A stretch of DNA of 64,000 nucleotides from Minisyncoccia bacterium (GTDB taxonomy: Bacteria; Patescibacteriota; Minisyncoccia; UBA6257; GWB1-50-10). The position numbers were made by a program, and so were the translations under genes. The notes beneath the pieces were generated by a model. That model did no database searches. It saw only the letters and a program-made list of their open reading frames with translations, and was not told where the DNA came from. The stretch spans positions 2,613-66,612 of the forward strand of contig JBEKVQ010000006.1 in assembly GCA_049997815.1 (NCBI GenBank). The letters are read 5' to 3'. Positions 1 through 17,311 of the stretch are shown here, piece by piece; position 1 is the first letter of the stretch; every line of letters starts with the position of its first letter.

Positions 1-17
1 ATCCCCGGAAATCATTC

Positions 18-1370
18 TTGGAACAATTCGGCGACCTTTGGAAAGCGGTGCCCAAGATCGCCCTAATGTATACGCGGAGCGTCAATTCCGAATACACGAA
101 CATCTCGGCCGATAGCAAGAATTGCTACATGATAGTCGAATCGTCCAACAACGAGAATTGCATCCATTGCTACTGGATCCAGCAATCCAAGGACCTAGTT
201 GACGTTTCTTTCACCAATAAAGTAGAGCTCTCTTACGAGAGCGATGACAGCTACGATTCCTACAAGATTTTCTACAGCAAGGGGTGCCATGATTGCCGGG
301 AGAGCTATTTCCTTTTGGATTGCCGGAATTGTTCCGACTGTTTCGGCTGCGTCAATTTGAGGAACAAGCAATATCACGTTTTCAACGAACCCTTGGGAAA
401 AGATGGGTACGAAAAATTCCTGAAGGAAGCCCGGTTGGATACGGCGAGCGGAGTCGAGGCGACGAGAAAGAAATTTGCTGAATTTCTGAAGACCCAGCCC
501 AGAAAGTACGCCGAGATAGTTAATGCCGTTAATTCATCGGGTAACTACATAAAAGACGCCAAGAACTGCAATTCTTGTTTTCATTGTTATGACGCCGAGG
601 ACTCCAAATATGGTGTCCATGTCTGGCGGGACGCCAAGGATTGTCTTGACGTCGATACGACCGGCAGGGGAGCTCAAATGATGTACAACTCGATGAATGC
701 CGGGATGAATGTATCGAATCAAATATGTTCCCGAATGTGCTGGTCAAGTACCTTCATGAGTTATTGTTATTATTCTTTCGATTCCAATAATTGTTTTGGA
801 TGCGTCGGGTTGAGGAACAAGAACTACTGCATTTTGAACAAGCAATATGAACCGGAGGAATATAAAGAACTGGTTTCACGGATAAGGGCCAAGATGGTTC
901 AAGACGGGGAGTATGGGGAATACTTGCCGTATAAGATGGCGCCGATCGGATATAATCTTTCTTTACTCGCTTCCACCTATTTCCCGCAGACCAGAGAATC
1001 GGTGGAGAAGCTCGGCGGGACCTGGGACGAATTGGAAAGCACCGGCGGCAACGTCGCTTTGCTCGAACCGGCCGATGATATCGGGGACGTCGACGAGAGC
1101 ATCGTAAAATACGGGATAAAATGCCTGGAGACCGGCCGGCCCTTCAATATCACGAAGGATGAATTGGATTTCCTGAAGAGGCACGGGATTCCGGTGCCGC
1201 GATATTATCCGGATGTGCGGACGTCCGAACGGTACAAGAAACTGGCGGATATCCGTCCGAGGGAAGCCAAGTGTTTCTTTTGCCAAAAACCCATAATCCA
1301 CTACTACCTGCCGGAGTGGGGATACAAAAAAATCGCGTGCAATGATTGTTATCTTAAAGAGGTAATTTAA
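18..1370 (+). CDS. Cys-rich zinc-ribbon repeat protein, family copy 1. The 5' end is cut by the window edge (frame open to position 3), so it is aligned to mid and C-terminal regions of the other copies. It has a divergent C-terminal ribbon module (ends CNDCYLKEVI).
   Basis: Frame open to window start. Mid-region motifs match the other copies (VNSEYTNISADSKNCYMIV, CRNCSDCFGCVNLRNKQYHVFN, FGCVGLRNKNYCILNKQYEPEEYKEL). A CxxC....CxxC tail is present. Confidence 0.6.
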   Translation: MEQFGDLWKAVPKIALMYTRSVNSEYTNISADSKNCYMIVESSNNENCIHCYWIQQSKDLVDVSFTNKVELSYESDDSYDSYKIFYSKGCHDCRESYFLLDCRNCSDCFGCVNLRNKQYHVFNEPLGKDGYEKFLKEARLDTASGVEATRKKFAEFLKTQPRKYAEIVNAVNSSGNYIKDAKNCNSCFHCYDAEDSKYGVHVWRDAKDCLDVDTTGRGAQMMYNSMNAGMNVSNQICSRMCWSSTFMSYCYYSFDSNNCFGCVGLRNKNYCILNKQYEPEEYKELVSRIRAKMVQDGEYGEYLPYKMAPIGYNLSLLASTYFPQTRESVEKLGGTWDELESTGGNVALLEPADDIGDVDESIVKYGIKCLETGRPFNITKDELDFLKRHGIPVPRYYPDVRTSERYKKLADIRPREAKCFFCQKPIIHYYLPEWGYKKIACNDCYLKEVI

Positions 1371-1385
1371 CTAGCAACCAGAGAC

Positions 1386-3131
1386 ATGCAACAAGAGACA
1401 AGGAATTGTCAGAGCTGTAAAAAACCTTTTGCAATTGAGCCGGAGGACTTCGCTTTCTACGAGCGGATAAAAGTTCCGGCGCCGACGTGGTGCCCGGAGT
1501 GCCGGATGAAGCGCAGAATGACCTTCCGGAGCGAGCACTCGCTCTTTAAAAGAAAGTGCGACCTATGCGGGAAGGAGATCATCGCCATGTACCATCCCGA
1601 GGCGGACGTTGTCGTCTACTGCTACGACTGCTGGTGGAGTGATAAGTGGGATGCCGCCGATTACGGAAAGGAATACGATTTCACGAAGCCGTTCTTCAAG
1701 CAATTCGGCCAGCTCTTGAAAGAAGTCCCGAGAGCGGCGCTCGAAGGATACAAGAATGAAAACTGTCCCTACACCAACTACACCTGGTTCTGCAAGAATA
1801 TCTACCTTTCCCCCTCGACTCTTTACTCCGAGAATATTTGGTATTCCCACGGGGTTACCTATTGCCAAGACAGCATGGACTGCGTTTATATCTATAATTC
1901 TCAGCTTTGTTACGAGTCGCTGGATTCGCTGTACTGCTCAAATTGCAAGTACCTGACCGATTGCCGGGAGTGCATCGATTGCGCATTCCTTTTCGATTGC
2001 CGCGGATGCCAGAGCTGTTTCATGAGTTCGAATCTTCGGAACAAATCGTACGTTTTCAGAAATACGCAGTTGTCCAAGGAGGAATACGAAATAAAAATGA
2101 GCGAGGTTAATCTCGGGAGCAGTTCCGCCACGGAAAAGCTTTTCCCTGAATACGAGAATTTGAGGTCGCGGGCCATCCATCGCTTCGCGAGCCTTTTTCA
2201 CACGAAGAACTGCACCGGAAATAATTTGAGCAATGCGAAAGACACGAGGTTCTGCTTTACCGGCGAGAAGCTGGAAAACGTGAGCCACGGCATCCGCATA
2301 ATCGACGCCAAGGATTCCGCCGACCTCTACGGCGTCGGGGACGGAGCCGAACTTCTCTACGACGGCGTGAACGTCGGATATCGGGATTCGCTCATCAGAT
2401 TTTCCATGAATACTTTTGAAAACATAATCGATGCAACTTATTGCAATGATTGCCGGGTTTCCCGGTATCTCTTCGGTTGTGCCGGCTTGCGGAAGAAGCA
2501 ATATCACATTTTGAACAAGGCCTATTCAAAAGAGGAGTACGAAGCGCTGATACTGAAGATAATCAAACACATGAACGATATGCCGTACACGGATAAAAAG
2601 GGCAAGGCATACCCCTTCGGCGAGTTTTCTCCGTCCGAATTCAGTCCGTTTTCTTACAACGAATCGATTGCGCAGGAGTACTATCCGATAGCCGAGAAGG
2701 AAGCCGTAGAGCAGGGTTTTCGCTGGAGAGCCTTGAGTACCCGGGAATACAAGATCACGAAGAACCCGAATGACCTGCCCGACGATATCAAGGAGGTTCC
2801 CGATTCTATAATTAAGGAAACCATCGGGTGCCTTCACGGAGGTTCGTGCGACGAGCCGTGCACGACCGCTTTCAAGATATTGGAATCGGAACTCCAATTT
2901 TACAGGCGGTTGAACTTGCCCTTGCCGCGTTTATGCCCGAATTGCCGGCATTATCGGCGAATCAAGTACAGGAATCCCCTGAATATACAGCTTTGGCATC
3001 GCGCCTGCATGTGCGGCAAGCCCGGCCACGGACATACGGATAAATGCCGCAACGAATTCGAAACGCCGTATTCTCCCGAACGCCCGGAGATCGTTTACTG
3101 CGAGCAGTGCTATCAATTGGAAGTTTCTTAA
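1386..3131 (+). CDS. Cys-rich zinc-ribbon repeat protein, family copy 2 (581 aa)
   Basis: N-term MQQETRNCQSCKKPFAIEPEDFAFYERIKVPAPTWCPECRMKRR. Internal CxxCxxCxxC-LRNK-Y-xxN-xYSKEEYE repeats. C-term FYRRLNLPLPRLCPNCRHY...NEFETPYSPERPEIVYCEQCYQLEVS. Confidence 0.7.
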   Translation: MQQETRNCQSCKKPFAIEPEDFAFYERIKVPAPTWCPECRMKRRMTFRSEHSLFKRKCDLCGKEIIAMYHPEADVVVYCYDCWWSDKWDAADYGKEYDFTKPFFKQFGQLLKEVPRAALEGYKNENCPYTNYTWFCKNIYLSPSTLYSENIWYSHGVTYCQDSMDCVYIYNSQLCYESLDSLYCSNCKYLTDCRECIDCAFLFDCRGCQSCFMSSNLRNKSYVFRNTQLSKEEYEIKMSEVNLGSSSATEKLFPEYENLRSRAIHRFASLFHTKNCTGNNLSNAKDTRFCFTGEKLENVSHGIRIIDAKDSADLYGVGDGAELLYDGVNVGYRDSLIRFSMNTFENIIDATYCNDCRVSRYLFGCAGLRKKQYHILNKAYSKEEYEALILKIIKHMNDMPYTDKKGKAYPFGEFSPSEFSPFSYNESIAQEYYPIAEKEAVEQGFRWRALSTREYKITKNPNDLPDDIKEVPDSIIKETIGCLHGGSCDEPCTTAFKILESELQFYRRLNLPLPRLCPNCRHYRRIKYRNPLNIQLWHRACMCGKPGHGHTDKCRNEFETPYSPERPEIVYCEQCYQLEVS

Positions 3132-3175
3132 TCGATTCCGAGATTGCCTGATTTAGTGTTATAATTATTCAAATA

Positions 3176-5074
3176 ATGGCGAACGAGATCGAAAAGGACG
3201 TCGTCTATTTTGCGAGAACCGATTTCCGCAACAGCGAGCGGCTTTTCGGCATCAAGCGCAAGGACCGGCGCCAGCACATGTACGTTATCGGCAAGACCGG
3301 CACCGGAAAGTCCGTCCTTTTGAACAACTTGATCATCCAAGACATCGCGAACGGCGAGGGTTTGTGCGTGATAGACCCGCACGGCGAATTGGCCGAGGGC
3401 CTTTTGGAAAAGATTCCCAAGGAGCGGATGAACGACGTCATCTATTTCAATCCCGCCGATGCGGATTTCCATATCGGCTTTAACGTATTGGAATTGCCCG
3501 ACCCCAAATACAAGCACTTGGCCGCTTCGGGCCTGATGAGCATCTTCACGAAGATATGGTCCGGCGTTTGGTCGGCGAGGATGGAATACATTTTGAACAA
3601 TGCGATTCTCGCGCTCTTGGATACGCCCGGCTCGACCCTCCTGGGCGTCACGCGGCTTTTAGTGGACAAAGAGTATCGCCAGAAAATTGTGGGGAACATC
3701 AAAGACCCGGTCGTGAAGGCCTTTTGGGTGAATGAGTACGAGGAGTGGAAGGACCAGTTCCGGAACGAGGCCATCGCGCCCATTCAAAACAAAGTCGGCC
3801 AGTTCCTCTCGACCTCGATGGTCCGGAACATCGTCGGCCAGTCCAAGAGCACGATAGATATCTTCGACATAATGAACACGGGAAAGATTTTCATCGTGAA
3901 CGTCTCGAAGGGACGCATCGGCGAGGACAACTCGGCACTTCTGGGAGCGATGCTCATCACGAAGATTCAGCTCGCTTCGATGGAGCGCGTGCGCGTGCCG
4001 GAAGACGAGCGCGTTGATTTTTATCTCTATGTGGACGAGTTCCAGAACTTCGCGACCGATTCTTTCGCGAGCATCTTGTCCGAATCCAGAAAATACCGGT
4101 TGGATTTGATTTTGGCCCATCAGTACATCGGCCAGCTCGTGACGGACGTTTCAACCAAGGTACGCGACGCGGTTTTCGGCAACGTCGGTACGATGGTTTG
4201 TTTCCGGGTAGGTGCGGCCGACGCCGAGTTTTTGGAAAGCGAATTCGAACCCGAATTCGTACCCCAAGATTTCGTTAACCTTCCGAACTACACGATTTAC
4301 CTGAAGCTAATGGTGGATGGCGTTACGAGCCGGCCCTTTTCGGCGAAGACGCTTCCGCCATTCAAGGTCAATTCATCCTCGGAGCTCGTAAAACACATCA
4401 TTGACAGTTCAAGGAAGCGTTACACGCGGCCGGCCTGGGAGGTGGAGAAGGAGGTTAGAGAGTGGAGTGGTATGACCGGTCCGGGCGGTGGCGGCGGTTC
4501 CTCGACGGGTCTTGGTTTCGGAAAATACGAGGTCGTGTGCTCTTCCTGTGGCAAGACGACGACCGTTCCCTTCGAGCCCCAGCCGGGACGGCCGGTCTAC
4601 TGCCAGGATTGCTTGGCCAAGATAAAGGCGGGCGAACTCCAACCGGTCACGGTTCGCAGGGATTCTCCGGCGGTGGCTTCAACCCAGATGAATCAATTCA
4701 CTGATCTGTCTAAGTTGGGCATTGAGTATGAAGAAAAGGTAGCGCCGCCGCCTAGGGCGGAACGGAAACCGGAAGAAGCGAGAAAAGAACCACCCGTGTT
4801 CAAAAAGGCCTTCAGTACTTTCAGACCCCAGCCAAGGGCTCAACAACAGCCCCAATCGAACGTCCAACAACAATCCCAAACAAGGACTCAAAGGCCGCCG
4901 GCCTTCGAGGAAAAACCATTCATTGAGGAATCGGAAAAACCGGCAATGTCCCTATCGGAGCTCTCGAAGCCCCACGAAGAAAAGAAAACGAAGGAACCGA
5001 AAGAAGGAATGGACGTGGAAAGTTTGCGGAACGCCTTGAAGGAAGCCCTGATCAACGTTGATGATAAGAAATAA
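3176..5074 (+). CDS. P-loop NTPase of the TraD/TraG(VirD4)/HerA-like (DUF87-type) superfamily. It has a C-terminal CxxC...CxxC zinc ribbon and a Pro/Gln/Glu/Lys-rich low-complexity tail. No N-terminal TM helices.
   Basis: Walker A YVIGKTGTGKSVLL. Walker B-like FYLYVDEFQNF followed by RKYRLDLILAHQYIGQL. Gly linker GPGGGGGSSTGLGFG then KYEVVCSSCGKTTTVPFEPQPGRPVYCQDC. Tail QQQPQSNVQQQSQTRTQRPP...EEKKTKEPKEG. Confidence 0.55.
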   Translation: MANEIEKDVVYFARTDFRNSERLFGIKRKDRRQHMYVIGKTGTGKSVLLNNLIIQDIANGEGLCVIDPHGELAEGLLEKIPKERMNDVIYFNPADADFHIGFNVLELPDPKYKHLAASGLMSIFTKIWSGVWSARMEYILNNAILALLDTPGSTLLGVTRLLVDKEYRQKIVGNIKDPVVKAFWVNEYEEWKDQFRNEAIAPIQNKVGQFLSTSMVRNIVGQSKSTIDIFDIMNTGKIFIVNVSKGRIGEDNSALLGAMLITKIQLASMERVRVPEDERVDFYLYVDEFQNFATDSFASILSESRKYRLDLILAHQYIGQLVTDVSTKVRDAVFGNVGTMVCFRVGAADAEFLESEFEPEFVPQDFVNLPNYTIYLKLMVDGVTSRPFSAKTLPPFKVNSSSELVKHIIDSSRKRYTRPAWEVEKEVREWSGMTGPGGGGGSSTGLGFGKYEVVCSSCGKTTTVPFEPQPGRPVYCQDCLAKIKAGELQPVTVRRDSPAVASTQMNQFTDLSKLGIEYEEKVAPPPRAERKPEEARKEPPVFKKAFSTFRPQPRAQQQPQSNVQQQSQTRTQRPPAFEEKPFIEESEKPAMSLSELSKPHEEKKTKEPKEGMDVESLRNALKEALINVDDKK

Positions 5075-6310: not shown

Positions 6311-7465
6311 ATGTCAAGAATAAAAGAAAAATTTAATCCCAAACAGGGCCGAAGGATTTTCGTAGGAATGTCCGGCGGGGTAGATTCTTCGGTTGCTGCT
6401 CATCTACTTAAAGAACAAGGCTTCGATGTAACCGGCGTTTTTATCCGTTCTTTCAACGTTGACGGTTGCGCCGAGCGGGATGCGGAGGATGCCCGGCGGG
6501 CGGCGGCGCACCTGGGGATTCCGTTCTATGTTTTTGACTTTGAGGAGGAGTATAAAAGGGAGGTGGTGGAGTATATGGTCAATGGCTATCGGAACGGCCT
6601 TACGCCCAATCCGGACGTGATGTGCAACAAGGAGATAAAGTTCGGGTTGTTTTTGAAAAAAGCCCTGGAAATGGGAGCTGACTACATTGCTACTGGGCAC
6701 TACGTTCGCCTAGATCGCTCGTCCAACACCCCTGCTCAGGGTGTCTCCGGGGCGACGCCCAAGTCTTACCCTTCGCAGGAGTGTCGGAACCCGCTCTCAG
6801 TAGCTCGTGATGCCAATAAAGATCAAAGCTATTTCCTGTGGACACTGACCCAGGATCAATTAGGGTATTGTCTTTTTCCAATTGGAGATTATTTGAAGGG
6901 GGAAGTGAGGGAAATCGCGCGGAAAGCGGGATTGCCGACGGCGGAAAAGAAAGACTCGCAGGGCATCTGTTTTCTGGGCGATGTGGCGCTCGACGAATTC
7001 CTGAAGGATTATATAAAGCCAAAGAGGGGGCCGATCGTTGATATAGATGGCAATAAGGTCGGTGAGCACGACGGGATTTTTTTCTATACCATCGGCCAGC
7101 GGCACGGCCTAGGTCTTGGCGGAGGGGAGCCGTACTACATCGCCGACAAAATTTTGAAGACCAATACGCTCATGATGGCGCGAGGGAGCGATAATCCAGC
7201 ACTTTTTAAAAAGGAAATAGAAATTGCGGATGTCCATTTTATCGATTCAAACCCTTCCGATAAACAAAGGGTTTTCGCTAGAGTTCGGTATCGTCAGCCA
7301 CTCGTCCCGGCGGAACTTCAGCGGCTCTCAAATTCAAATTATCGACTTGTCTTCAAGAGGGCGGTAAAATTTGTCGCGCCCGGCCAGTCGGCGGTCTTCT
7401 ACGAGGCCGGATACTTCGCCGGTCTTCGCGGCCGGAGGATGCTGGGGGGTGGTATAATAATTTGA
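6311..7465 (+). CDS. mnmA: tRNA-specific 2-thiouridylase MnmA
   Basis: PP-loop SGGVDSSVAA. Motifs NKEIKFGLF, ATGHYVR, KDQSYFLW and GICFLGD are typical of MnmA/TrmU. Confidence 0.85.
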   Translation: MSRIKEKFNPKQGRRIFVGMSGGVDSSVAAHLLKEQGFDVTGVFIRSFNVDGCAERDAEDARRAAAHLGIPFYVFDFEEEYKREVVEYMVNGYRNGLTPNPDVMCNKEIKFGLFLKKALEMGADYIATGHYVRLDRSSNTPAQGVSGATPKSYPSQECRNPLSVARDANKDQSYFLWTLTQDQLGYCLFPIGDYLKGEVREIARKAGLPTAEKKDSQGICFLGDVALDEFLKDYIKPKRGPIVDIDGNKVGEHDGIFFYTIGQRHGLGLGGGEPYYIADKILKTNTLMMARGSDNPALFKKEIEIADVHFIDSNPSDKQRVFARVRYRQPLVPAELQRLSNSNYRLVFKRAVKFVAPGQSAVFYEAGYFAGLRGRRMLGGGIII

Positions 7466-9237
7466 TGAACCCTGAAACAAAAACCTGCCAAAACTGCAAG
7501 CAACCGTTCAGAATTGAACCGGACGATTTTGCGTTTTACGAGCAGATAAAAGTTCCGCCACCGACTTTCTGTTTTGACTGTCGTTTGGAACGCCGCATGG
7601 TCTGGCGGAACGAGCGCTCGCTTTACAGGAGAAAATGCAATGCGCCGGGGCATTCGGAGGACATCATAAGCATGTACGCGCCGGAGGGGGAGTATAACGT
7701 CGTCGATTCAAAGTTCTGGTGGTCGGACGGGTGGGACCCGATGATGTACGGGCTTTATTACAATTTTTCCGTCCCGTTCTTCAAGCAATTCGAACGGTTG
7801 ACCCACAGCGTGCCGCTTTTGAATCTCTCCATCGTGAATTCGAATAATTCGGACTATACGAACTACGTGGACGGGAACAAGGACTGCTATCTGGTTTTCG
7901 GTTCGGGATGGAACGAGAACGTCAATTACGGCAACAAGATAATGGGCAATAAGGACTCCCAGGACCTTTTGGGTACCACGAAGTGCGAACTCTCGTATGA
8001 GAGCGTTAATTGCGTGGAGTGCTATCGGCTGCTTTACAGCCGGAACTGCAAGGCCTGTTCAAATTCTTGGTTTCTGTACAACTGCCGGAATTGTCAGGAT
8101 TGCGTCGGTTGCGCCAATCAGAACAACAAGACGCACTGCATTTTCAACGTCCAATACTCTAAAGAGGAGTACGAAAAGAAGCTGGGAGAGCTTGGGCTTA
8201 ATACAGTCGGAGGCATTGCTTCCGTTAAAGAGGAATTCACAAAAACCTATCTGCAGGTGCCTCACCGCTACGCGAATATTTTCAATTCGGTGGACTGCAC
8301 GGGGGAGAACATCAACGATTCGAAGAACGTAAAATATTCATTCGATATCTTCGAAAAGATGGAGGATTCGAGATATATGTACGGTTCGCTCCAGACCAAG
8401 GATTGCTACGACGGGAACGGCATTTACCAGAATCCGATGTGCTACGAGACGGTGGACGCGAACATCGGCCAGAACGTGCACATGTCGCTCACCATTTATT
8501 CCTCGAATGACATAACCTACTGCTGGAATTGCCACTCTTCATCCGACCTCTTCGGCTGCGTCGGTTTGCGCAATAAGAAGTATTGCATCTTGAACAAACA
8601 GTATACGAAAGAGGAATATGACGAGTTGCTCCCCAAGATAAAGAAACACATGAACGATATGCCGTATGTAGACAAGATTGGCCGGAAATACGGGTACGGG
8701 GAGTACTTCCCGGACGAAATATCGCCGTTCGCGCACAACGAGTCCATCTCGCAGGAGTATTTCACGCTTTCGAAAGAGGAAACCGAAAAAGCCGGATACG
8801 CCTGGCGCAATATGCTTGAACGGGATTATCGCCCGACCCTGCGTTCGGACCAGCTTCCGGACAGCTCCAGTTTTCCCGAATCTATCGCGAACGAGGTCGT
8901 GGAGTGCGAACACAAAGGGAGTTGCAACGAACAATGCACGACGGCTTTCAAATTCATTCCAGCTGAGATTCAGTTCTATAAGCGGCTGAACCTCCCGCTT
9001 CCGCATTTCTGCCCCAATTGCCGGCACTACGCCCGCTTGAGGCAGCGCAATCCGATAAAGCTTTGGCACCGCAAATGCCAGTGCGTCGGGGAAGCGTCCG
9101 AAAACGGCGTCTATCAAAACACCGTCCAACATCAGCATGGAGCAGGAAAATGTCCTAACGAATTTGAGACAAGTTACAGCCCGGAGAGGAAGGAGATAGT
9201 GTATTGCGAGCAGTGTTATCAAGCGGAAGTCGTATGA
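7465..9237 (+). CDS. Cys-rich zinc-ribbon repeat protein, family copy 3 (~590 aa)
   Basis: The ATG at 7465 overlaps the mnmA stop (TGATG). N-term MNPETKTCQNCKQPFRIEPDDFAFYEQIKVPPPTFCFDCR. C-term NEFETSYSPERKEIVYCEQCYQAEVV. Confidence 0.7.
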   Translation: MNPETKTCQNCKQPFRIEPDDFAFYEQIKVPPPTFCFDCRLERRMVWRNERSLYRRKCNAPGHSEDIISMYAPEGEYNVVDSKFWWSDGWDPMMYGLYYNFSVPFFKQFERLTHSVPLLNLSIVNSNNSDYTNYVDGNKDCYLVFGSGWNENVNYGNKIMGNKDSQDLLGTTKCELSYESVNCVECYRLLYSRNCKACSNSWFLYNCRNCQDCVGCANQNNKTHCIFNVQYSKEEYEKKLGELGLNTVGGIASVKEEFTKTYLQVPHRYANIFNSVDCTGENINDSKNVKYSFDIFEKMEDSRYMYGSLQTKDCYDGNGIYQNPMCYETVDANIGQNVHMSLTIYSSNDITYCWNCHSSSDLFGCVGLRNKKYCILNKQYTKEEYDELLPKIKKHMNDMPYVDKIGRKYGYGEYFPDEISPFAHNESISQEYFTLSKEETEKAGYAWRNMLERDYRPTLRSDQLPDSSSFPESIANEVVECEHKGSCNEQCTTAFKFIPAEIQFYKRLNLPLPHFCPNCRHYARLRQRNPIKLWHRKCQCVGEASENGVYQNTVQHQHGAGKCPNEFETSYSPERKEIVYCEQCYQAEVV

Positions 9238-10907
9238 ACTCTGAGACCAGAAATTGCCAAAATTGCAAACAGCCGTTCAAGATAGAATCGGAAGATTTTG
9301 GGTTTTATGAAAAAATGGGCGTGTTGCCGCCGGTTTTGTGTCCGGATTGCCGGATGAAACGGAGATTGGTCTGGAGGAACGAGCGCACGCTTTACAAGCG
9401 TACTTGTGACTTATGTAAGAAATCGATCGTCTCAGTTCATCATCCTAATTACCCATCTCCGGTGTACTGCGTTAAGTGCCATCATTCAGACAATTGGGAC
9501 CCGTATTCTTTCGGGGTCGCCTATGATCCCAGCCGTCCATTTTTCGATCAGTTCAAAGAACTTTTACTACGGATTCCAAAAGCAGCCACCCATCACGGCA
9601 CTGCCGATGGTTCCCCCAACGTAAACAGCGAATACGTAAATTTCGCCGGCGGGAACAAGGATTGCTATCTCATTTTTAACTCAAGCGTGAGTGAAAATTG
9701 CAGCTATTCACGAGGACTCATTAATTGTCGTGATACCATGGATTCCTATTTTGCCGACCAGGTAGAACGCTGCTACGAAGGAGTGAACATCAATAAGAGT
9801 AATTCGGTGATTTATGGCCAAGATGTTTTTGATTCCATGGATTCCATGTTCCTCCTGAATTGCGTGGGTGTTCAGCATTGCTTTGGTTGTGTTAATTTGA
9901 GGCACAAGTCCTACCATTTTTTCAACGAGCCATTGTCCAAGGACGAATGGGAAAAACGAGTTGGAGAGATCCGAGGTAGTCACCAAAAGACGAAAGAAGC
10001 AAGAAGGCGCTTTGAAGTTTTTGCGCTTACCATGCCGCGCAAAGAGAATAACAATATGAAATCAGTGAACTGTTCGGGTGATTATATTTTTGAATCGAAG
10101 GGCTGTTCCTCGTGTTTTGAAATATTCGCTTCGGAAAACTGCAAATACGGATTTTCCGTGAAACTTGCAAATGATTGCTACGATTTAGTTGGTCGCGGGC
10201 ACAAATCGGAATTGCTCTTGGAAGGCGTTGGAGTTGGCCACGGTTGTTCTCGTGTTATCGGTTCATGGGTGGCTGAAGTATCGCACGATGTTGAATATTC
10301 TTATGATGTTCGTTCTTGCGAGTATTGCTTTGGGTGCGCGGCCTTAAGGCACGCCCGTTTTTGTATTTTTAACAGGCAGTATTCGGAAAAAGAATATAAA
10401 AAAATAAGAGAAGATATTGTCTCCCATATGAAACAGGGGGGTTCGTACGGGATGTACTTTCCGCCCGCACTTTCTCCCTGGGCATACAATGAAACACTGG
10501 CGCAGGAAAATTTTCCTCTCACCAAAGAAACGGCCGTAACCAGCGGGTTTCGTTGGGAAGAAGGCATACCACGGACGAAGGGGAAGGAAACGTTATTGCC
10601 GGAACAAATCCCAGACAACATAAAAGACGTTTCGGACTCGATTCTTAATGAAACTCTGAAGTGCATTTCCTGCGGCCACAATTATCGTTTAACTCCCGCC
10701 GAGTTTGCTTTATATCGCGAGCTTCTCGTGCCTGTGCCGCGGGAGTGTTTTGACTGTCGCTATCTAGACCGTATCCGCCGCAGAGGACCGATCAAGCTTT
10801 ATGTTCGGAAATGCGCTAAGTGCGGTAAATCGATTAATACCACCTTTGCTCCCGACCGGCCTGAAATCATCTACTGCGAGCAGTGTTATCAAGCGGAGGT
10901 GGTTTGA
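9234..10907 (+). CDS. Cys-rich zinc-ribbon repeat protein, family copy 4 (~557 aa; shorter, variant C-terminal module)
   Basis: ATGA overlap with the copy 3 stop. N-term MNSETRNCQNCKQPFKIESEDFGFYEKMGVLPPVLCPDCR. Ends KCAKCGKSINTTFAPDRPEIIYCEQCYQAEVV and lacks the CQCAG...NEFETSY segment. Confidence 0.7.
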   Translation: MNSETRNCQNCKQPFKIESEDFGFYEKMGVLPPVLCPDCRMKRRLVWRNERTLYKRTCDLCKKSIVSVHHPNYPSPVYCVKCHHSDNWDPYSFGVAYDPSRPFFDQFKELLLRIPKAATHHGTADGSPNVNSEYVNFAGGNKDCYLIFNSSVSENCSYSRGLINCRDTMDSYFADQVERCYEGVNINKSNSVIYGQDVFDSMDSMFLLNCVGVQHCFGCVNLRHKSYHFFNEPLSKDEWEKRVGEIRGSHQKTKEARRRFEVFALTMPRKENNNMKSVNCSGDYIFESKGCSSCFEIFASENCKYGFSVKLANDCYDLVGRGHKSELLLEGVGVGHGCSRVIGSWVAEVSHDVEYSYDVRSCEYCFGCAALRHARFCIFNRQYSEKEYKKIREDIVSHMKQGGSYGMYFPPALSPWAYNETLAQENFPLTKETAVTSGFRWEEGIPRTKGKETLLPEQIPDNIKDVSDSILNETLKCISCGHNYRLTPAEFALYRELLVPVPRECFDCRYLDRIRRRGPIKLYVRKCAKCGKSINTTFAPDRPEIIYCEQCYQAEVV

Positions 10908-10977
10908 TCTAGCCGCCAGTCCTAATATAGGACTGGTAAGGATATTGTTTGGAATTTGGAAGAAGAACCGGCGGTTC

Positions 10978-12270
10978 ATGTGGATTACTGTACTGTCGCT
11001 ATTTGTTTTGGTCGGCTCTTTATATTCCTCGGCTTTCAGTGAGAATTTCGCGCAAAAATTCGTTCCTGAAGACAAAACCGTGAATTTTCAGGGACTGGTA
11101 CTGAACAACCCCGCGCCAATAGGGAACTACCAAAATCTTTACATTCGGACGAAACTCTCCGGAGCCGATGTTGAAATCCTAGTAAAAGCGCCGCGCTATC
11201 CGGAATTCCATTACGGCGACTGGGTGCTTATAAACGGCGCGGTAAAAAAGCTGGAACCGGAAAGCTACGCGCAATATCTCGCGAAAGAGGGGATAAGCGC
11301 CGTAGTGTCATATCCCAAGACGGAATTGGTTGCAGCGAATAAAGGCTCGCCGATAAAAGCATTTCTCTTCAATTTCAAGAATTCCGTCGTGGATAACTTT
11401 GGGAAAGTTCTGCCGTCCGAGGAATCCGCCTTTCTTTCCGGGTTGGTTTTGGGCGAGCGGAGCGATTTTTCGCCGGAATTCAAAACGGCGATGCAGACCT
11501 CCGGAACGACGCATCTCGTGGCGCTTTCGGGATATAACGTGACGATAGTCGTCACTTACGCGATGCTCTTGTTCGCTATGTTTTTCAGGAAGAAAGTATC
11601 GCTCACGCTCACGTTTCTGTTCCTGCTTGGATTCGTCCTGATGACCGGGGCGGAGGCCTCCGTCGTGCGGGCGGCGATAATGGGTGCACTCGTCGTCATT
11701 GCGAAGGAGAGCGGAAGGATCTTCAACGTGCGGAACGCCATAACGCTGGCCGGTCTCGCAATGGTGCTCGTGAATCCCAAGGTCCTGATCTTCGATGCCG
11801 GTTTTGAACTGTCGTTTCTGGCGCTACTGGGGATAATTTATTTGGAACCGGCGCTCCGAAAAATATTCAAAATGAAAGAGGAGGCCGGAATCCTGTCTTG
11901 GAGAAGAAACCTGCTTACCACCGCTTCGGCTCAACTGATGGTTGTGCCGATACTGATACAAAGTTTCGGGAACTTTTCACCCGTATCGCTTCTATCGAAC
12001 GTTCTGATATTGGAACTCATTCCTTTCACGATGGCTCTCGGCTTCAGTATTGCGCTCGTTTCGGGCATTTCCTACTATCTCACGCTCGTTGCGGGCTGGT
12101 TCGTTTGGCCGTTCCTGAAAATCGAGACCTGGCTCATTAGGTTCTTCGGCGGTTTCGGCATATCTCTGAATTTATCGTTGAGCTGGTTCCTGATACTGTT
12201 TTATTATGCTGCTCTTATCTTTTTCATCGTCTATGTAAATAGAAGAGCGAGAAAAATGTATGTTGCGTGA
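10978..12270 (+). CDS. comEC: ComEC/Rec2-family competence membrane channel domain protein
   Basis: Multiple TM helices. HLVALSGYNVTIV matches the ComEC HLxAISGxH motif. Start chosen at MWITVL (10978) rather than 10801, which overlaps the upstream gene by 107 bp. Confidence 0.65.
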   Translation: MWITVLSLFVLVGSLYSSAFSENFAQKFVPEDKTVNFQGLVLNNPAPIGNYQNLYIRTKLSGADVEILVKAPRYPEFHYGDWVLINGAVKKLEPESYAQYLAKEGISAVVSYPKTELVAANKGSPIKAFLFNFKNSVVDNFGKVLPSEESAFLSGLVLGERSDFSPEFKTAMQTSGTTHLVALSGYNVTIVVTYAMLLFAMFFRKKVSLTLTFLFLLGFVLMTGAEASVVRAAIMGALVVIAKESGRIFNVRNAITLAGLAMVLVNPKVLIFDAGFELSFLALLGIIYLEPALRKIFKMKEEAGILSWRRNLLTTASAQLMVVPILIQSFGNFSPVSLLSNVLILELIPFTMALGFSIALVSGISYYLTLVAGWFVWPFLKIETWLIRFFGGFGISLNLSLSWFLILFYYAALIFFIVYVNRRARKMYVA

Positions 12271-13141
12271 ATATATCCGAAATTTAATAGAGAACAATTT
12301 TAAAAAGGCGGTTTTTTGGCTCACGCTGTTTTTCGTTCTGGATATCATCGTATTCCGGCAGATTGCCGGTGGCGTGGCGGTAAAAGATAAGCTGGCGCTC
12401 TATTTTTTGCCGGTAGGGCAAGGGGATAGTGAACTTGCGGTTTTGCCCGGCGGAGTAAAAATACTTATCGACGGCGGTCCGCCGGATTCGCTTGTGTTGG
12501 CGAACCTGGATAAAGTTCTTTCGCCGCGCGACCGCTATATTGACCTCGTGATTTCAACTCATCCCCAGCAGGACCATTTTGGGGGATTGATAGAAGTTTT
12601 GAGACGTTATAAGGTCGGTACGTTCGTCTGGAACGGAGAGGTTGGCACTAACCCGGCGATGAATGATTTGCTTGCGCTCATTAAAGAAAATAACGTGCCT
12701 ATGGTTACGCTTGTGGCGGGAGACAAGATAATTTACGGAGAAAGCGAAACTGATGTCTTGTCACCTGTTTCGGGAGTGAAAGTTGATATAAACGAGGATG
12801 CGCTTGTCCTGGCACTTCAAAGCGGAGACACGAAAACGCTCTTCACGAGCGATGTCGGGGCAAAGACGGAGACGAGTATATTGAATTCTTATGCTGGACC
12901 CATAGATATCCTGAAGGTTGGCCATCACGGTTCTAAATTCTCTTCGTCGGCAAATTTCTTGAATATCCTAAGACCTAAGGTGGCGGTGATAGAGGTGGGG
13001 AAGAACAGTTACGGCCATCCGACGCCGGAGGTTCTAAATCGGCTCGCGGATATTGGTGCGCAAATTTTTCGCACCGACCAGGACGGACTCATAAAATTCG
13101 AGCCGGCGGGTGGAGCGCTCAAAATCTTCAAGGTTTTATAA
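12260..13141 (+). CDS. Metallo-beta-lactamase-fold domain protein (ComEC C-terminal MBL domain encoded separately)
   Basis: LPVGQGDSELAV...IDGGP, HPQQDHFGG and VGHHGS motifs. Overlaps the comEC end by 11 bp. Confidence 0.65.
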   Translation: MLREYIRNLIENNFKKAVFWLTLFFVLDIIVFRQIAGGVAVKDKLALYFLPVGQGDSELAVLPGGVKILIDGGPPDSLVLANLDKVLSPRDRYIDLVISTHPQQDHFGGLIEVLRRYKVGTFVWNGEVGTNPAMNDLLALIKENNVPMVTLVAGDKIIYGESETDVLSPVSGVKVDINEDALVLALQSGDTKTLFTSDVGAKTETSILNSYAGPIDILKVGHHGSKFSSSANFLNILRPKVAVIEVGKNSYGHPTPEVLNRLADIGAQIFRTDQDGLIKFEPAGGALKIFKVL

Positions 13142-13218
13142 TTGACACAGTCTGGTAAATAGATTAGTTTCTTCGTAGTAGCCAACCGAATTTTCCAATC
13201 AAATAAAGAGGTATCCTG

Positions 13219-13545
13219 ATGAAGATAGAACGTTTACACGGCACCACCAAGCAAACCGCCATTCAGAAGATTGATCAGTTTCTGGATGATTTAATGAAGC
13301 GCCGGTTCGAAGAAGTTGAAATCTCAAATCCTCGAAAGGAATGGAACGGAAACGTAATGGAATTTTCTTTCCATGTTTCGAAGGGCATGAAATATACCAA
13401 TATCCGGGGAAACGTTACGGTCACCGAAACGAGCGTCCGACTTGAAGCCAAGATGGGCATAATCGCACGCCAGTTTGTGTCGGAGGATCTTATCAGTAAG
13501 ACCATCAACGAACAATTCGAGAAATTGTTCTTTTTGAACGGCTGA
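13219..13545 (+). CDS. Hypothetical small protein (108 aa)
   Basis: Good SD (AAAGAGG) 7 nt upstream. No recognisable motif. Confidence 0.4.
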   Translation: MKIERLHGTTKQTAIQKIDQFLDDLMKRRFEEVEISNPRKEWNGNVMEFSFHVSKGMKYTNIRGNVTVTETSVRLEAKMGIIARQFVSEDLISKTINEQFEKLFFLNG

Positions 13546-13564
13546 TCCGAGCCGAGTCTAGGAA

Positions 13565-13603
13565 GGGTCGCATCTTTTAATTGAGATGCGGCCCTTTTGT
13601 TTG
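13565..13603 (+). terminator. Rho-independent terminator
   Basis: GGGTCGCATCT-loop-AGATGCGGCCC followed by TTTTGTTTG. Confidence 0.55.
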
Positions 13604-13641
13604 TCTTAGCGGCATTTTTTGTGTAAGATAATCTTATTCAT

Positions 13642-15036
13642 ATGCGAACATTAGTGGCGGAAATCGCGGAAAAAGAAGGAAAAGAAGTGGAGCTCATGGG
13701 CTGGGTGGACGTCCGGCGCGACCACGGGAAGCTCATCTTCATTGACCTGCGGGACCGGAGCGGAATAGCCCAGGTCGTTTTCTTTCCGAAAGACAAAGAG
13801 ATGTATGCCATGGCGGAAAAATTGCGTTCCGAGTGGGTAGTTAAAATAAAAGGGAAGGTTGGCAAGCGTCCGGCGGGAATGGATAATCCGAAAATTCCGA
13901 GCGGAGAGCACGAAGTGCCGGCGGAGAGCTTAGAAGTTCTGGCCGAGGCCAAGACGCCGCCCTTCGATATCGGTACGGATGGCCGGGAGATAAGCGAAGA
14001 AGTACGGATGAAATATCGCTATCTGGACTTGCGCCGCTCGCGGCTTCAGAAGAATATCCGCAATCGCCACAAGCTCATCAAATTCATCCGGGATTATTTG
14101 GATAAGGAGGATTTCACCGAAATAGAAACGCCGATACTCACGAAATCCACGCCCGAGGGCGCGCGGGACTACATAGTTCCTTCCCGTTTGTATCCGGGCA
14201 AGTTTTACGCCTTACCTCAGGCGCCCCAGCAGTACAAGCAGCTTTTGATGGTGGCCGGAATGGAAAGATATTTCCAGATAGCGCGGTGCTTTCGCGACGA
14301 AGATACGCGCGGAGACCGCCAGCCAGAGTTCACCCAACTGGACTTGGAGATGAGCTTCGTCGATAGGGAGGACGTGATGAATTTGAATGAAGAACTGCTT
14401 ATCGCGCTGGTCAAAAAGCTCTATCCGGAAAAGAAAATCCATAAAGTTCCCTTTCCTCGGATGAGTTATGCCGAAGCAATGGAGGAATATGGTACCGACC
14501 GGCCGGATTTGCGGAGCAATAAGAGTGACCTCAACGAACTGGCTTTTTGTTGGATAATCGATTTCCCGTTCTTTGAGAAGGCCGATGGCGGCGGCTGGAC
14601 CTTTACCCACAATCCTTTTTCCGCCCCGAAGCCGGAATTCATGAAGGACCTGATGGCGAAGAAGAATATCCCAGGAATACTCACGAGCCAGTATGACGTT
14701 GTCGTAAACGGCTGGGAAATCGGCGGGGGAAGCATCCGGAACCACACGTCCGAGGCACTCGAGAAGGTTTTTGAGATAATGGGTTTCAAACCGGAGAAGA
14801 TTAAAAATAATTTCGGGCATATGCTCGAAGCTTTCGAGTTCGGCGCGCCGCCGCACGGCGGCATCGCTTGGGGATTGGACCGGCTCGCAATGATACTGGA
14901 GAACGAACCGAATATCCGAGAGGTTATCACCTTCCCGAAGACCGGTGACGGAAGGGACCTAATGATGGACGGCCCGTCGGAGGTTTCCAAGGAACAACTG
15001 AAAGAACTTCACATTAAGGTGGAGAAAGAGAAATGA
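13642..15036 (+). CDS. aspS: Aspartyl-tRNA synthetase, bacterial-type core but lacking the GAD insertion domain (464 aa)
   Basis: GKFYALPQAPQQYKQLLM. Class II motif 2 FRDEDTRGDRQPEFTQLDLEMSF. Motif 3 GGIAWGLDRLAMIL. TDRPDLR is followed directly by the catalytic-core continuation. Confidence 0.85.
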   Translation: MRTLVAEIAEKEGKEVELMGWVDVRRDHGKLIFIDLRDRSGIAQVVFFPKDKEMYAMAEKLRSEWVVKIKGKVGKRPAGMDNPKIPSGEHEVPAESLEVLAEAKTPPFDIGTDGREISEEVRMKYRYLDLRRSRLQKNIRNRHKLIKFIRDYLDKEDFTEIETPILTKSTPEGARDYIVPSRLYPGKFYALPQAPQQYKQLLMVAGMERYFQIARCFRDEDTRGDRQPEFTQLDLEMSFVDREDVMNLNEELLIALVKKLYPEKKIHKVPFPRMSYAEAMEEYGTDRPDLRSNKSDLNELAFCWIIDFPFFEKADGGGWTFTHNPFSAPKPEFMKDLMAKKNIPGILTSQYDVVVNGWEIGGGSIRNHTSEALEKVFEIMGFKPEKIKNNFGHMLEAFEFGAPPHGGIAWGLDRLAMILENEPNIREVITFPKTGDGRDLMMDGPSEVSKEQLKELHIKVEKEK

Positions 15037-15482
15037 AAGAGTGGCCATCGGTACAAGGTGATAATCCGGAAGGGGAACGTGAAAAGCGTGAGTTGACGGA
15101 AGAGGAAAGAGAAAGTTTGCATTTTGCGCCTCAGGTTGAAGAAGGACCCAATGACCCAGACTCATCGCTAGAAAAAATCGACATATTTCTTGGAGAGGAA
15201 AAAATAGGAGGAGGCTCATTCATTCCCGATAGAAAAGAAGGAGGCGTCACTCAATTTCAGGGGTTGGAGATATTGCCGGAGTATCGAGGGATGGGCATTG
15301 GGAAGGAAGTGTACCGCAAATTGAACGAGGATGCGAAGAAACGCGGGCAGGTTCTGACCTCAGATATAATAGTTTCTGATGATGCCAAAAGGGTTTGGGA
15401 ATCGCTCGTAAGGAGCGGTGAGGCGGAGAAGTTGGGTGAGGGTATTTATCGTTTTAAGAGAGAAGAAAAAAAGGAAGAATAA
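15033..15482 (+). CDS. Small GNAT-family acetyltransferase-like protein
   Basis: ILPEYRGMGIGKEVY resembles GNAT motif A. ATGA overlap with the aspS stop. Confidence 0.5.
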   Translation: MKEWPSVQGDNPEGEREKRELTEEERESLHFAPQVEEGPNDPDSSLEKIDIFLGEEKIGGGSFIPDRKEGGVTQFQGLEILPEYRGMGIGKEVYRKLNEDAKKRGQVLTSDIIVSDDAKRVWESLVRSGEAEKLGEGIYRFKREEKKEE

Positions 15483-15485
15483 AAA

Positions 15486-16559: not shown

Positions 16560-16562
16560 TTT

Positions 16563-17039: not shown

Positions 17040-17311
17040 GGTCTCGGCAATTCTTCACTTTTCTCTCTTTCTGTCAATTTTTTATGCACAGAGCCCGATT
17101 TGTGCCCGCCGGGGCGGGCGTATAATTAATGGTGATCCTGCTCGTTAGATTCCGGATCAAATAATCCTTACCAGGGGTGTCAAAATGTTCCGATTCGACA
17201 GAGAATTAATTTTTTCTTAAGTCTCGGAACTAGACAATACCCACTTTGGCCAATGCCGGGATTAATCTAGGAGCGGGATTTGCGTTTTTATAAGGCCTTG
17301 TTATCATTCAA

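Follow-up and report, generated by a model that had tools for sequence, protein, structure and literature searches.

The window (the whole 64,000-nucleotide stretch of DNA analysed here) carries near its start an intact open reading frame for a protein of 632 amino acid residues, which we will call the long ATPase. An identical protein (P0001) stands in the database under the name [quoted passage not shown] The gene follows an array of Cys-rich genes that is cut by the window start, the contig carrying ~13 kb more of it on the upstream side; coordinates are given in Table 1. No Shine-Dalgarno-like sequence is found between the -10-like element TGTTATAAT and the ATG of the ATPase gene, and a consensus scan revealed no terminator-like site between this gene and the Cys-rich gene upstream. 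Terminator-like sites in the scan stood at control level (11 versus 9.1 in shuffled controls) and promoter-like sites about 2 SD above it (12 versus 6.9, sd 2.4), none of the latter bearing on the finding. An integrated mobile element was considered and rejected, since the window contains no tRNA genes and is ordinary chromosome.

Table 1. Coordinates of the long ATPase gene, its motifs and the nearest Cys-rich genes in the window.
Feature	Position	Strand	Basis and remarks
Cys-rich gene, cut by the window start; second-last array copy	3..1370	+	HMM of window paralogues; full-length (549 aa) at a related locus (L002)
Cys-rich gene, 581 aa, 44-nt gap upstream of ATPase gene	1386..3131	+	CxxC-x17-CxxC at aa 58-82
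Extended -10-like element TGTTATAAT	3157..3165	+	Read from the sequence; 10 nt ahead of ATG
Long T4CP-type ATPase gene, no TMD	3176..5074	+	Intact ORF, 632 aa; Pfam and NCBIfam matches
Nucleotide-binding domain with inserted all-alpha domain, aa 1-430	3176..4465	+	TrwB_AAD_bind match, aa 29-348
Walker A GKTGTGKS, aa 39-46	3290..3313	+	G39, G42, T43, G44, K45 invariant
Walker B LYVDEFQNF, aa 284-292	4025..4051	+	L284, V286, D287-F292 invariant
RKYRLDLILAHQY, aa 305-317, TraG-D_C region after Walker B	4088..4126	+	TraG-D_C covers aa 283-353
Gly-rich linker, aa 435-449	4478..4522	+	Length-variable, unaligned among homologues; pLDDT <50
CxxC-x17-CxxC treble-clef zinc ribbon, aa 451-483	4526..4624	+	PF23477 and TIGR04272 matches
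P/Q/E/K-rich disordered tail, aa 484-632	4625..5071	+	pLDDT <50 except at motifs
Tail motif 1, DLSKLGIEYEE (consensus LxxLGIEF)	4703..4735	+	L511, G515, I516, E517 at least 90% conserved in 38 homologues
Tail motif 2, MSLSELSK (consensus LSLSEL)	4946..4969	+	L593 invariant, L596 at least 90% conserved; modelled short helix 593-597
Tail motif 3, predicted C-terminal amphipathic helix VESLRNALKEALINV (consensus I/VxxLRxALxxAL)	5015..5059	+	Conservation and model
Two more Cys-rich genes, between mnmA and comEC	7462..10907	+	Absent here in close relatives

The product of the gene is a VirD4/TrwB-type coupling protein (T4CP) ATPase without a transmembrane segment. Pfam places TrwB_AAD_bind (PF10412) first (E 3.9e-13), followed by DUF87 (1.5e-8) and TraG-D_C (3e-6); PF02534 and PF12696 match as well, and TIGR03743 and NF045973 match in part. 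Foldseek ranks TrwB (E 5e-9), DotL (7e-9) and Cagbeta (4e-8) ahead of HerA (4e-7) and VirB4 (7e-6). TrwB is the sole sequence relative with a solved structure, and HMMER aligns residues 258-323 with TrwB residues 256-322, which hold RKAGLRVVAGLQS, in a weak alignment of 2.9 bits. The initial annotation had described a TraD/VirD4-type P-loop ATPase possessing a Walker A, a Walker B and RKYRLDLILAHQY, and all of these motifs are present, the Walker motifs in a P-loop domain of the TrwB/FtsK/HerA clade. In an alignment of 38 homologues (A1), on which all invariant and at least 90% conserved columns cited here are based, R305, K306, R308, H315, Q316 and Y317 of the RKYRLDLILAHQY region are invariant, and the numerous invariant columns are concentrated in the ATPase core (aa 1-430). 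An AF2 model of moderate quality (pLDDT 60.7; residues 336-397 below 50) is all-helical at aa 110-235, a stretch that lies between the two Walker motifs and has a confidence of 62-87; it corresponds to the all-alpha domain that T4CPs carry inserted in the nucleotide-binding domain.

The same annotation had noted the lack of transmembrane helices, and hydropathy bears this out: the best 19-residue Kyte-Doolittle window reaches 1.25, none exceeds 1.6, and the N-terminal transmembrane region of T4CPs is missing from the 38 residues ahead of Walker A. Because Walker A begins at residue 39 there is no room for the HAS-barrel N-domain of HerA either, and no NurA, SIR2 or DUF4297 partner is located among the neighbours; the PADLOC HerA matches span the P-loop only. 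The FtsK/SpoIIIE family (PF01580) is matched over aa 33-54 only, below threshold (E 6e-4, 19.7 bits versus a cut-off of 24), and the FtsK gamma domain is absent, the C-terminus being occupied by the ribbon and the disordered tail. Neither the 64-kb window nor the 20 kb upstream on the contig contains virB4, a relaxase gene or any further T4SS gene, and T4SS genes are likewise absent from the gene clusters that recur within 10 kb at 80 homologous ATPase loci.

More than 8,000 homologues of the long ATPase were recovered. The best 120 of these are 62-100% identical to it; all possess TrwB_AAD_bind and the ribbon, and most the other ATPase domains. The same architecture is present across Parcubacteria at 63-89% identity. 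Among more distant relatives, a 40%-identical homologue of 395 aa on a Sulfitobacter plasmid has a solitary gene that adjoins transposases, and one from Bradyrhizobium stands among CHAT and TPR genes.

The ribbon core, CSSCGKTTTVPFEPQPGRPVYCQDC (aa 455-479), matches zf_Tbcl_2 (PF23477) with E 3.4e-15 and 55.9 bits (cut-off 27) and TIGR04272 with E 2.2e-16 and 59.3 bits (cut-off 36), which places it in the CxxC-x17-CxxC domain family. By such profile scores, the Pfam and NCBIfam matches of the long ATPase are far above chance level. C455, C458, C476, C479, F466, P468 and Y475 are invariant in the alignment, and the ribbon is modelled with a pLDDT of 80-86. Zinc binding has been shown experimentally for small CxxC-x17-CxxC-domain proteins of M. 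mazei (PMC12704099). The module is found in 2,770 representative clusters, chiefly small multi-ribbon proteins, and is thus promiscuous. The ATPase and the Cys-rich proteins had been assigned a common ribbon class with a spacing of 11-13 residues; the class is indeed the same, but the spacing is exactly 17 in both. Similarly, the tail was correctly described as disordered and rich in P, Q, E and K (44.7% versus 20% in the core), but it measures 150 rather than ~130 residues and contains three conserved motifs. The last of these has L625 as an invariant residue and L617 as one conserved to at least 90%, and a helix is modelled over residues 614-631 (pLDDT 67-76). Outside the three motifs the tail cannot be aligned among the 38 homologues.

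The Cys-rich proteins are ~580 aa in length and of the multi-zinc-ribbon type, with ~35 Cys in several zinc sites, a constant C-terminal module, a variable central region and an acidic C-terminus; none possesses a signal peptide. Given these Cys residues and zinc sites, the acidic C-terminus and the missing signal peptide, translocation in the unfolded state would be awkward. Their ribbons score 16.4 and 24.5 bits against PF23477, below the family cut-off of 27. The invariant C-terminus, which the initial annotation connected with substrate recognition by coupling-type ATPases, is with its YCEQCY the second half of a CxxC-x17-CxxC site; the residues concerned are zinc ligands, so that the structure of the zinc site accounts for their invariance without recourse to a secretion signal. 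The window contains 13 copies and one broken copy among housekeeping genes (PPDK, enolase, AlaRS). Arrays distant from any ATPase are located at 20703-27827 and 35218-40555 of the window and at two other loci (L084 and L086), and a 71%-identical relative of the ATPase-adjacent copy stands in an unrelated context. At a related locus (L004) ComEC directly follows MnmA, without intervening Cys-rich genes. We found no report in the literature of the Cys-rich family or of its linkage to the ATPase.

At a distance of 16 kb upstream the contig encodes a short, ribbon-less paralogue, 45% identical to the long ATPase, and ~9 co-directional Cys-rich genes occupy the interval between the two. The order on the contig is SecD, SecF, a sigma70_r4/HARE-HTH gene, a gene with a weak DUF8128 match (c4), c12, the short ATPase, CutA1, the Cys-rich genes and the long ATPase. 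The products of c4 (~470 aa) and c12 (~179 aa), which precede the short ATPase, are membrane proteins with N-terminal hydrophobic segments, of which the long ATPase has none. The DUF8128 label of c4 is a precomputed weak match that a local Pfam search of c4 did not return, and we found no mention of DUF8128 in the literature. The profile of the phage family phrog_5156 matches both proteins, the ATPase with its positions 402-804 (E 6e-58) and c4 with its positions 80-212 (E 3.5e-9); gp156 of phage G is 26% identical to c4 (E 1e-5). In Bacillus phages the counterpart of the soluble domain of c4 is fused N-terminally to homologous ATPases. A 34%-identical homologue from the actinobacterium Embleya is an 812-aa T4CP encoded in a plasmid conjugation cluster together with PrgI, VirB4, relaxase and NlpC/P60 genes; its N-terminal domain has no significant pairwise similarity to c4, and the fusion argument therefore draws on phrog_5156 and gp156 only. 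Synteny and this one fusion family make c4 a candidate for a separately encoded anchor of the ATPases. The second paralogue, the separate membrane partner and the conserved tail motifs are the parts that weigh most for mechanism, and none of them figured in the initial annotation. Together with the location of Cys-rich genes between the paralogues and the two-way linkage of the families, they are what is new here.

Across 80 genomes the most conserved neighbours of the long ATPase are Cys-rich genes. They occur within 10 kb at 50 of the 80 ATPase loci, always on the same strand (175 genes in 51 loci, the window's own contig included), adjoin an ATPase directly at 28 of 72 loci and lie between the paralogues at 17 of 30; the loci are phylogenetically related, so that independent events are fewer than these and the following counts suggest. 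Intergenic gaps are short, with a median of 50-70 nt. An independently sampled set comprises 42 metagenome loci, each centred on a Cys-rich gene and 10 kb or longer; 20 of the 42 contain an ATPase where ~5% would be expected, and the 895 kb of such loci contain 40 ATPase ORFs against an expectation of ~1 per 400 kb, an enrichment of ~9-fold per locus and ~18-fold per kb. The trio of ATPase, Cys-rich gene and ATPase recurs in distant lineages; it is kept when the outer flanks differ (EFP, TrmD, DnaK/DnaJ or c4) and when the order of long and short ATPase is inverted, as in Staskawiczbacteria. ATPase-adjacent copies also keep their position among best matches (21 of 47 versus a background of 17%; 9 of 15 versus 5%), behaving as positional orthologues that are more conserved than the dispersed copies. 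Nevertheless, the closest relatives (L004-L007 and L009, 84-93% identical over the ATPase domain) have the paralogues adjoining and lack Cys-rich genes to a distance of 10 kb, which, together with the distant arrays, indicates that neither family needs the other next to it.

The initial annotation had suggested, as a speculation, that the ATPase handles the Cys-rich proteins or their nucleic-acid cargo. Co-occurrence across genomes, seen from both sides, favours this proposal, and the ATPase does not cluster with HerA-NurA-type proteins, an outcome that, in the absence of co-occurrence, had been named as contrary evidence. Two of the three arguments first offered are weak, the shared ribbon because the module is so promiscuous and the invariant C-terminus for the structural reason given above. 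Gene order makes a functional link plausible, and since the two ATPases flank Cys-rich arrays in many Parcubacteria, the Cys-rich proteins are the most plausible clients of the motor. The reading we prefer, tentatively and as something short of probable, is that the DUF8128 protein anchors both soluble T4CPs of the pair, the long ATPase and its paralogue, to the membrane in trans, with the Cys-rich proteins as clients. The ATPases would act as ATP-driven rings tethered by that protein. The ribbon and three tail motifs of the long ATPase might form a docking platform, by analogy to the C-terminal tails of TraD and DotL, and the Cys-rich proteins would be engaged there, either as exported substrates or as adaptors that recognize targets. 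A bolder version, which we consider improbable, envisages a Parcubacteria-specific delivery module of the two orphan ATPases, DUF8128 and the Cys-rich genes, in which the Cys-rich proteins, as cargo of the patescibacterial T4SS or cargo-selecting adaptors, are recognized through their terminal ribbons by the ribbon and tail of the long ATPase and are used on host cells during episymbiosis.

Gene order might also be a matter of history. The Cys-rich family could have arisen or landed between the ATPases and grown mainly by local tandem duplication with occasional dispersal, the ATPases serving independently, for example in coupling for a T4SS encoded elsewhere or in another exapted role. We regard this as rather unlikely, though it accounts for the spread of Cys-rich copies, the broken one among them, through housekeeping genes, for arrays that resemble insertions (relatives have MnmA and ComEC, and glycerate kinase and PPDK, adjoining), for the closest relatives that keep the ATPase pair without Cys-rich genes nearby, and for the half of the Cys-rich loci with no ATPase in reach. 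The T4CP pair, reported from 2,918 patescibacterial genomes, is apparently also wider in distribution than the Cys-rich family (PMC12102498). A historical accident fits less well with a trio that outlasts the replacement of both outer flanks and the inversion of the paralogues, with the enrichment in the independent sample, with adjacent copies that hold their position and exceed the dispersed ones in conservation, and with short co-directional gaps that are compatible with co-transcription.

Two further readings bear on the ATPase itself. It could be a housekeeping DNA motor, a membrane-tethered TrwB/FtsK-like ring that pulls DNA in ComEC transformation, nucleotide scavenging or chromosome handling, with the ribbon binding nucleic acid and the Cys-rich proteins as bystanders or as accessories that bind nucleic acid. 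At 29 of 81 loci, the one in the window (10801-13141) among them, ComEC and its MBL-domain gene follow the long ATPase at a distance of 1-3 genes; the nearest structural relatives, TrwB and HerA, are DNA translocases, there are weak NCBIfam matches to the archaeal DNA-import ATPase CedD, and the very high conservation is compatible with a core function. The linkage to ComEC is lineage-limited, however, being lost near DnaK/DnaJ and in Staskawiczbacteria where that to Cys-rich genes stays, and the missing gamma domain and sub-threshold FtsK_SpoIIIE match are likewise unfavourable, which makes this a distinctly unlikely account. Scarcely credible, finally, is a HerA-like or MADS-like anti-phage defence ATPase for which the diversified Cys-rich paralogues would be sensors or effectors. 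PADLOC does return mad8 (E 1.3e-13) and HerA models (E 5e-8), Foldseek also finds defence-associated HerA complexes, and a multi-copy family with a variable centre resembles a sensor repertoire. The PADLOC matches are to generic P-loop regions, T4CP structures rank above HerA, the HAS-barrel is absent and no nuclease, SIR2, NurA or methyltransferase partner is nearby; such systems are patchy and mobile, whereas the present gene occurs almost throughout its clade, with conserved synteny and 63-94% conservation. On conservation and context we rejected the defence reading.

Patescibacteria, which live as epibionts, account for a large part of bacterial diversity. Their T4CP homologues number ~2 per genome and have been described as “orphan,” as they are rarely near virB4 (148 of 5,713), and their exaptation “cannot be ruled out” (PMC12102498). 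In the single species screened a T4SS was essential for epibiotic growth, and in Ca. Southlakia epibionticum a T4CP homologue was not (PMC12102498). The present analysis gives such orphans a conserved context of membrane partner, paralogue pair and linked zinc-ribbon family, and with it specific pairings. If the link to the Cys-rich proteins is true, candidate clients have been named for a major secretion-related motor of an uncultivated radiation; if it is false, the Cys-rich genes still form one of the unannotated families that have expanded most in these small genomes.

Among known systems, HerA/DUF87 and FtsK/SpoIIIE belong to the same P-loop clade as the long ATPase, which differs from them in having no HAS-barrel, NurA partner or FtsK alpha and gamma domains and in scoring better against T4CP models and structures. 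TrwB of R388 and VirD4 share with it the inserted all-alpha domain, the Walker motifs and the TraG-D_C region; here, however, the N-terminal TMD is missing, the gene is chromosomal and one of a long and short pair, and a zinc ribbon and 150-aa tail have been added. T4CPs that lack a TMD and work with a membrane partner encoded apart from them form an established class, class iii of Llosa & Alkorta as cited in PMC7431656. In TraJ/TraI of pIP501 the T4CP ATPase is likewise soluble, and a separate membrane protein is thought to complete a VirD4-like complex (PMC7431656), but these are plasmid conjugation components near a T4SS, and the module here is conserved and chromosomal with c4 as candidate partner. 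Gp156 of phage G (825 aa; phrog_5156) and the Embleya T4CP (812 aa) have a homologous C-terminal ATPase (28-34% identity) and are paired with a VirB4-like ATPase, the phage family having in addition an N-terminal domain homologous to c4; unlike the long ATPase, each is a single fused chain without zinc ribbon or tail.

The virB/virD4 locus of Bartonella encodes a complete T4SS with tandem bep effector paralogues adjoining, the Beps being characterized by BID domains and basic tails. The likeness, a T4CP gene beside tandem paralogues with a constant C-terminal module and variable bodies, is positional only. The Cys-rich proteins carry several zinc ribbons and end in an acidic C-terminus, and T4SS genes are missing from their surroundings. 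The tail of F-plasmid TraD recruits TraM, and that of Legionella DotL the adaptors IcmSW, LvgA and DotN. Like these proteins, and DotL is a top structural match, the long ATPase carries after its T4CP core a flexible C-terminal extension with short elements of docking type; the tails share no sequence similarity, and the extension here includes a zinc ribbon.

The ORF at window positions 3176-5074 (+ strand) is intact and encodes 632 residues, and what the initial annotation observed in it is confirmed: both Walker motifs, RKYRLDLILAHQY, the linker and the ribbon CSSCGKTTTVPFEPQPGRPVYCQDC all lie where they had been placed. Pfam reveals TrwB_AAD_bind (E 3.9e-13, aa 29-348), along with DUF87, T4SS-DNA_transf and TraG-D_C, the match to FtsK_SpoIIIE falling under threshold; NCBIfam gives partial matches to TraD and the CD1115 VirD4-like family. 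TrwB is the sole sequence relative with a solved structure. In an AF2 model of moderate quality, built from 38 homologues (pLDDT 60.7; 62-87 for residues 50-250, poor for 336-397), residues 110-235, which lie between the Walker motifs, form an insert that is helical throughout. When the PDB is searched with Foldseek, TrwB (E 5e-9), DotL (7e-9) and Cagbeta (4e-8) come first, whereas HerA (4e-7) and VirB4 (7e-6) score less well. Walker A begins after just 38 residues, and hydropathy does not reach transmembrane level in any window, from which it follows that the protein has no membrane segment, as had been noticed for its N-terminus. Among the affinities initially considered (TraG-D_C, HerA, FtsK), the Pfam and NCBIfam matches, the TrwB relationship, the helical insert and the Foldseek order all point to the first; the protein is a coupling-protein (T4CP) type ATPase minus its transmembrane domain, and this assignment is secure. 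A perfect extended -10 (TGTTATAAT) at window 3157-3165 ends 10 nt ahead of the ATG, with no Shine-Dalgarno-like sequence between the two; the transcript may have no leader, or almost none.

Features of the long ATPase and positions of the ATPase and Cys-rich genes (contig position - 22,788 = window position)
Feature	Position	Basis or remark
Walker A, long ATPase	aa 39-46	sequence
Walker B, long ATPase	aa 284-292	sequence
Motif RKYRLDLILAHQY, long ATPase	aa 305-317	sequence
Gly-rich linker, long ATPase	aa 435-449	sequence
Ribbon CSSCGKTTTVPFEPQPGRPVYCQDC, long ATPase	aa 455-479	sequence
Tail motif LxxLGIEF	aa 511-517	conserved in alignment of 38 homologues (A1)
Tail motif LSLSEL	aa 593-596	conserved in A1
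Terminal amphipathic helix I/VxxLRxALxxAL	aa 614-628	conserved in A1; helix pLDDT 67-76 (AF2)
Short ATPase	contig 8,141-9,595	followed by CutA1, then Cys-rich genes
About nine Cys-rich genes	contig 10,270-25,919	from joining with L001 (window's own contig)
Long ATPase	contig 25,964-27,862	directly after the ~nine Cys-rich genes
Cys-rich genes	window 3-3131, 7462-10907, 20703-27827, 32286-34029, 35218-40555	+ strand

The search for homologues of this long ATPase gave > 8,000 matches. The best 120 (62-100% identity; Jorgensen-, Brenner-, Lipton- and other Parcubacteria) all possess TrwB_AAD_bind and the ribbon, and most have the other ATPase domains as well. They are named "CxxC-x17-CxxC domain-containing protein," [quoted passage not shown] or "DUF87"; the class is already annotated and noticed, yet unexplained.

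The tail is P/Q/E/K-rich, as first described (44.7% vs 20% in the core), and spans 150 residues rather than ~130. While mostly unalignable in A1, it is not featureless, since it includes three short conserved motifs which have the look of docking motifs.

Eighty genome loci around homologues were fetched and their genes clustered. About 30 of these contain a second, shorter ATPase (440-510 aa) without the ribbon, 44.6% identical to the long one across 426 residues. A recurrent order is SecD, SecF, sigma70_r4/HARE-HTH, c4 (~465 aa, DUF8128-type), c12 (~177 aa), short ATPase, then CutA1, PepA and Cys-rich genes (all optional), long ATPase, EFP or TrmD, MnmA, ComEC and an MBL-fold protein; c4 and c12 both have N-terminal hydrophobic segments. 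The window's 225,062-bp contig carries a short-ATPase homologue as well (P0399, 94% identical to the L087 query). Its first 19,595 bp begin with an M23 peptidase, two more genes, SecD, SecF and sigma70_r4/HARE-HTH, followed by a 472-aa protein (weak precomputed DUF8128 match) and a 179-aa protein ahead of the short ATPase. The Cys-rich array first noticed beside the long ATPase is thus bracketed by both paralogues.

The Cys-rich proteins (~580 aa) form a family of > 5,800 clusters with no Pfam domain, and neither the PDB nor BFVD contains a match to their fold. The window contains 13 intact copies and one broken, ~30% of its 64 kb, all on the + strand among housekeeping genes (PPDK, enolase, glycerate kinase, AlaRS). 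Compared with close relatives (L004, L007), the arrays resemble insertions that separate genes which are neighbours there. The copy at 32286-34029 is split into two ORFs (466 and 124 aa) that differ in frame, which probably reflects either a pseudogene with a frameshift or an error in sequencing. Successive genes overlap by 4 nt (stop/start) at 22472-22475, 24256-24259 and 38768-38771, and the Cys-rich to Cys-rich gap over all loci has a median of 18 nt and is often negative, which suggests that genes within an array are translationally coupled. GC skew is positive in nearly every 2-kb bin of 1-64000, the cumulative skew climbing close to monotonically, and the + strand carries nearly all genes; this places the window inside one replichore, on the leading strand.

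The initial annotation proposed that the ATPase handles the Cys-rich proteins or their nucleic-acid cargo, citing a shared ribbon. Both do carry the same CxxC-x17-CxxC class, with a spacing of exactly 17 rather than 11-13, and they are its only carriers inside the window. The ATPase ribbon matches PF23477 (E 3.4e-15) and TIGR04272 "CxxC-x17-CxxC" (E 2.2e-16) well over threshold; those of the Cys-rich proteins reach just 16-25 bits against a PF23477 cut-off of 27. Zinc binding has been shown for small M. mazei proteins that consist of this domain (PMC12704099). With the 50-residue ribbon as query, a full HMMER scan gave 2,770 representative clusters, the best being mainly proteins of 90-340 residues in which two to five ribbons stand in tandem, several of them archaeal; in 84 of the best 150 scanned with Pfam, PF23477 occurred in 84/84 and T4CP domains in only 3-4. 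The ribbon is a mobile, promiscuous module, and its sharing is therefore weak evidence for a partnership. The Cys-rich C-terminus (YCEQCYxxEV), also invoked, is indeed invariant, because it is the second CxxC of the ribbon and thus half of a zinc site.

Gene order in both directions supports the putative functional link. An HMM from the window's Cys-rich paralogues found such genes within 10 kb of the ATPase in 50/80 loci; all clustered copies are on the ATPase strand (175/175; 51 loci, window's own contig included). No other neighbour is as well conserved (ComEC occurs at 29 loci); Cys-rich genes adjoin the long ATPase in 28/72 loci and sit between both paralogues in 17/30, with short gaps (median 50-70 nt). 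Conversely, 79 metagenome loci centred on Cys-rich genes (895 kb) contain 40 ATPase ORFs, with an ATPase in 24/79 loci and in 20/42 of those of >= 10 kb, where two ATPase genes per ~0.8 Mb genome predict ~5% by chance. All but one of these Cys-rich genes are just 42-52% identical to the query, and so the loci are not merely orthologues of the ATPase-adjacent copy. The test of co-occurrence proposed for related genomes thus favours a link. ATPase-adjacent copies are more conserved (70-78% vs 58%), and their best matches are also ATPase-adjacent in 21/47 cases vs 17% background and in 9/15 vs 5%. The trio is kept despite differing outer flanks, with paralogue order inverted in Staskawiczbacteria and a location between dnaK and dnaJ in a Nomurabacteria-like group. 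Against this, the two paralogues adjoin each other in the closest relatives (L004-L007, L009), with no Cys-rich gene in 21 kb; an ATPase is absent from 2/3 Cys-rich loci fetched individually; and the loci are phylogenetically related, so that the counts do not represent independent events.

In one lineage (L085, L114, L115, L134, L145, L152, L157) the genes run GrpE, Cys-rich array, a PaaX-like gene in reverse orientation, DnaK, long ATPase, Cys-rich genes, short ATPase and DnaJ, so that the whole module is embedded in an Hsp70 chaperone operon. A CutA1 gene (101 aa, divalent-ion tolerance; L170 9660-9965), often with an M17 leucyl aminopeptidase, directly adjoins Cys-rich arrays and the short ATPase at many loci (CutA in 21/81), which may point to a metal connection of proteins that contain ~35 Cys each. 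In a near-identical strain (L171 9554-19489), the short ATPase, CutA and three Cys-rich genes pass directly into enolase and more Cys-rich genes; relative to window 34026-36990, ~45 kb including the long ATPase are skipped. Either the Cys-rich repeats have truly recombined, or they have given rise to a chimera during assembly.

In 2,918 patescibacterial genomes, a survey published in 2025 found 5,713 VirD4-like T4CPs, with virB4 nearby for only 148, and its authors state that exaptation "cannot be ruled out" (PMC12102498). No description of the paralogue pair with a DUF8128 partner and Cys-rich array was found in the literature searched, and the module appears undescribed so far. We favour a T4CP pair that would be split and membrane-tethered, the long member docking clients through its ribbon and tail. 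Homologues of the ATPase occur in Bacillus and Geobacillus phages (G, CP-51, JL, SP-10, TP-84 and others; 47 phage records), several mis-annotated as "MsbA-like lipid A export permease." In phage G, the sole phage context examined (L167, 89194-93336), the ATPase is fused to a DUF8128-like N-domain 3' of a VirB4-like ATPase: the N-terminal part of gp156 (825 aa), a protein preceded by VirB4-like gp155, resembles c4 (26% identity, E 1e-5), and the C-terminal part resembles the ATPase. The PHROGs profile phrog_5156 (824 positions) matches both the ATPase (402-804, E 6e-58) and c4 (80-212, E 3.5e-9), and thus represents a fusion of the two. An Embleya plasmid encodes an 812-aa T4CP, 34% identical, in a cluster with PrgI, VirB4 (CD1110 family, E 5e-79), relaxase and NlpC/P60 genes; its N-domain has no detectable similarity to c4. 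A class of T4CPs which lack the transmembrane domain and cooperate with a separately encoded membrane protein is already recognised (PMC7431656).
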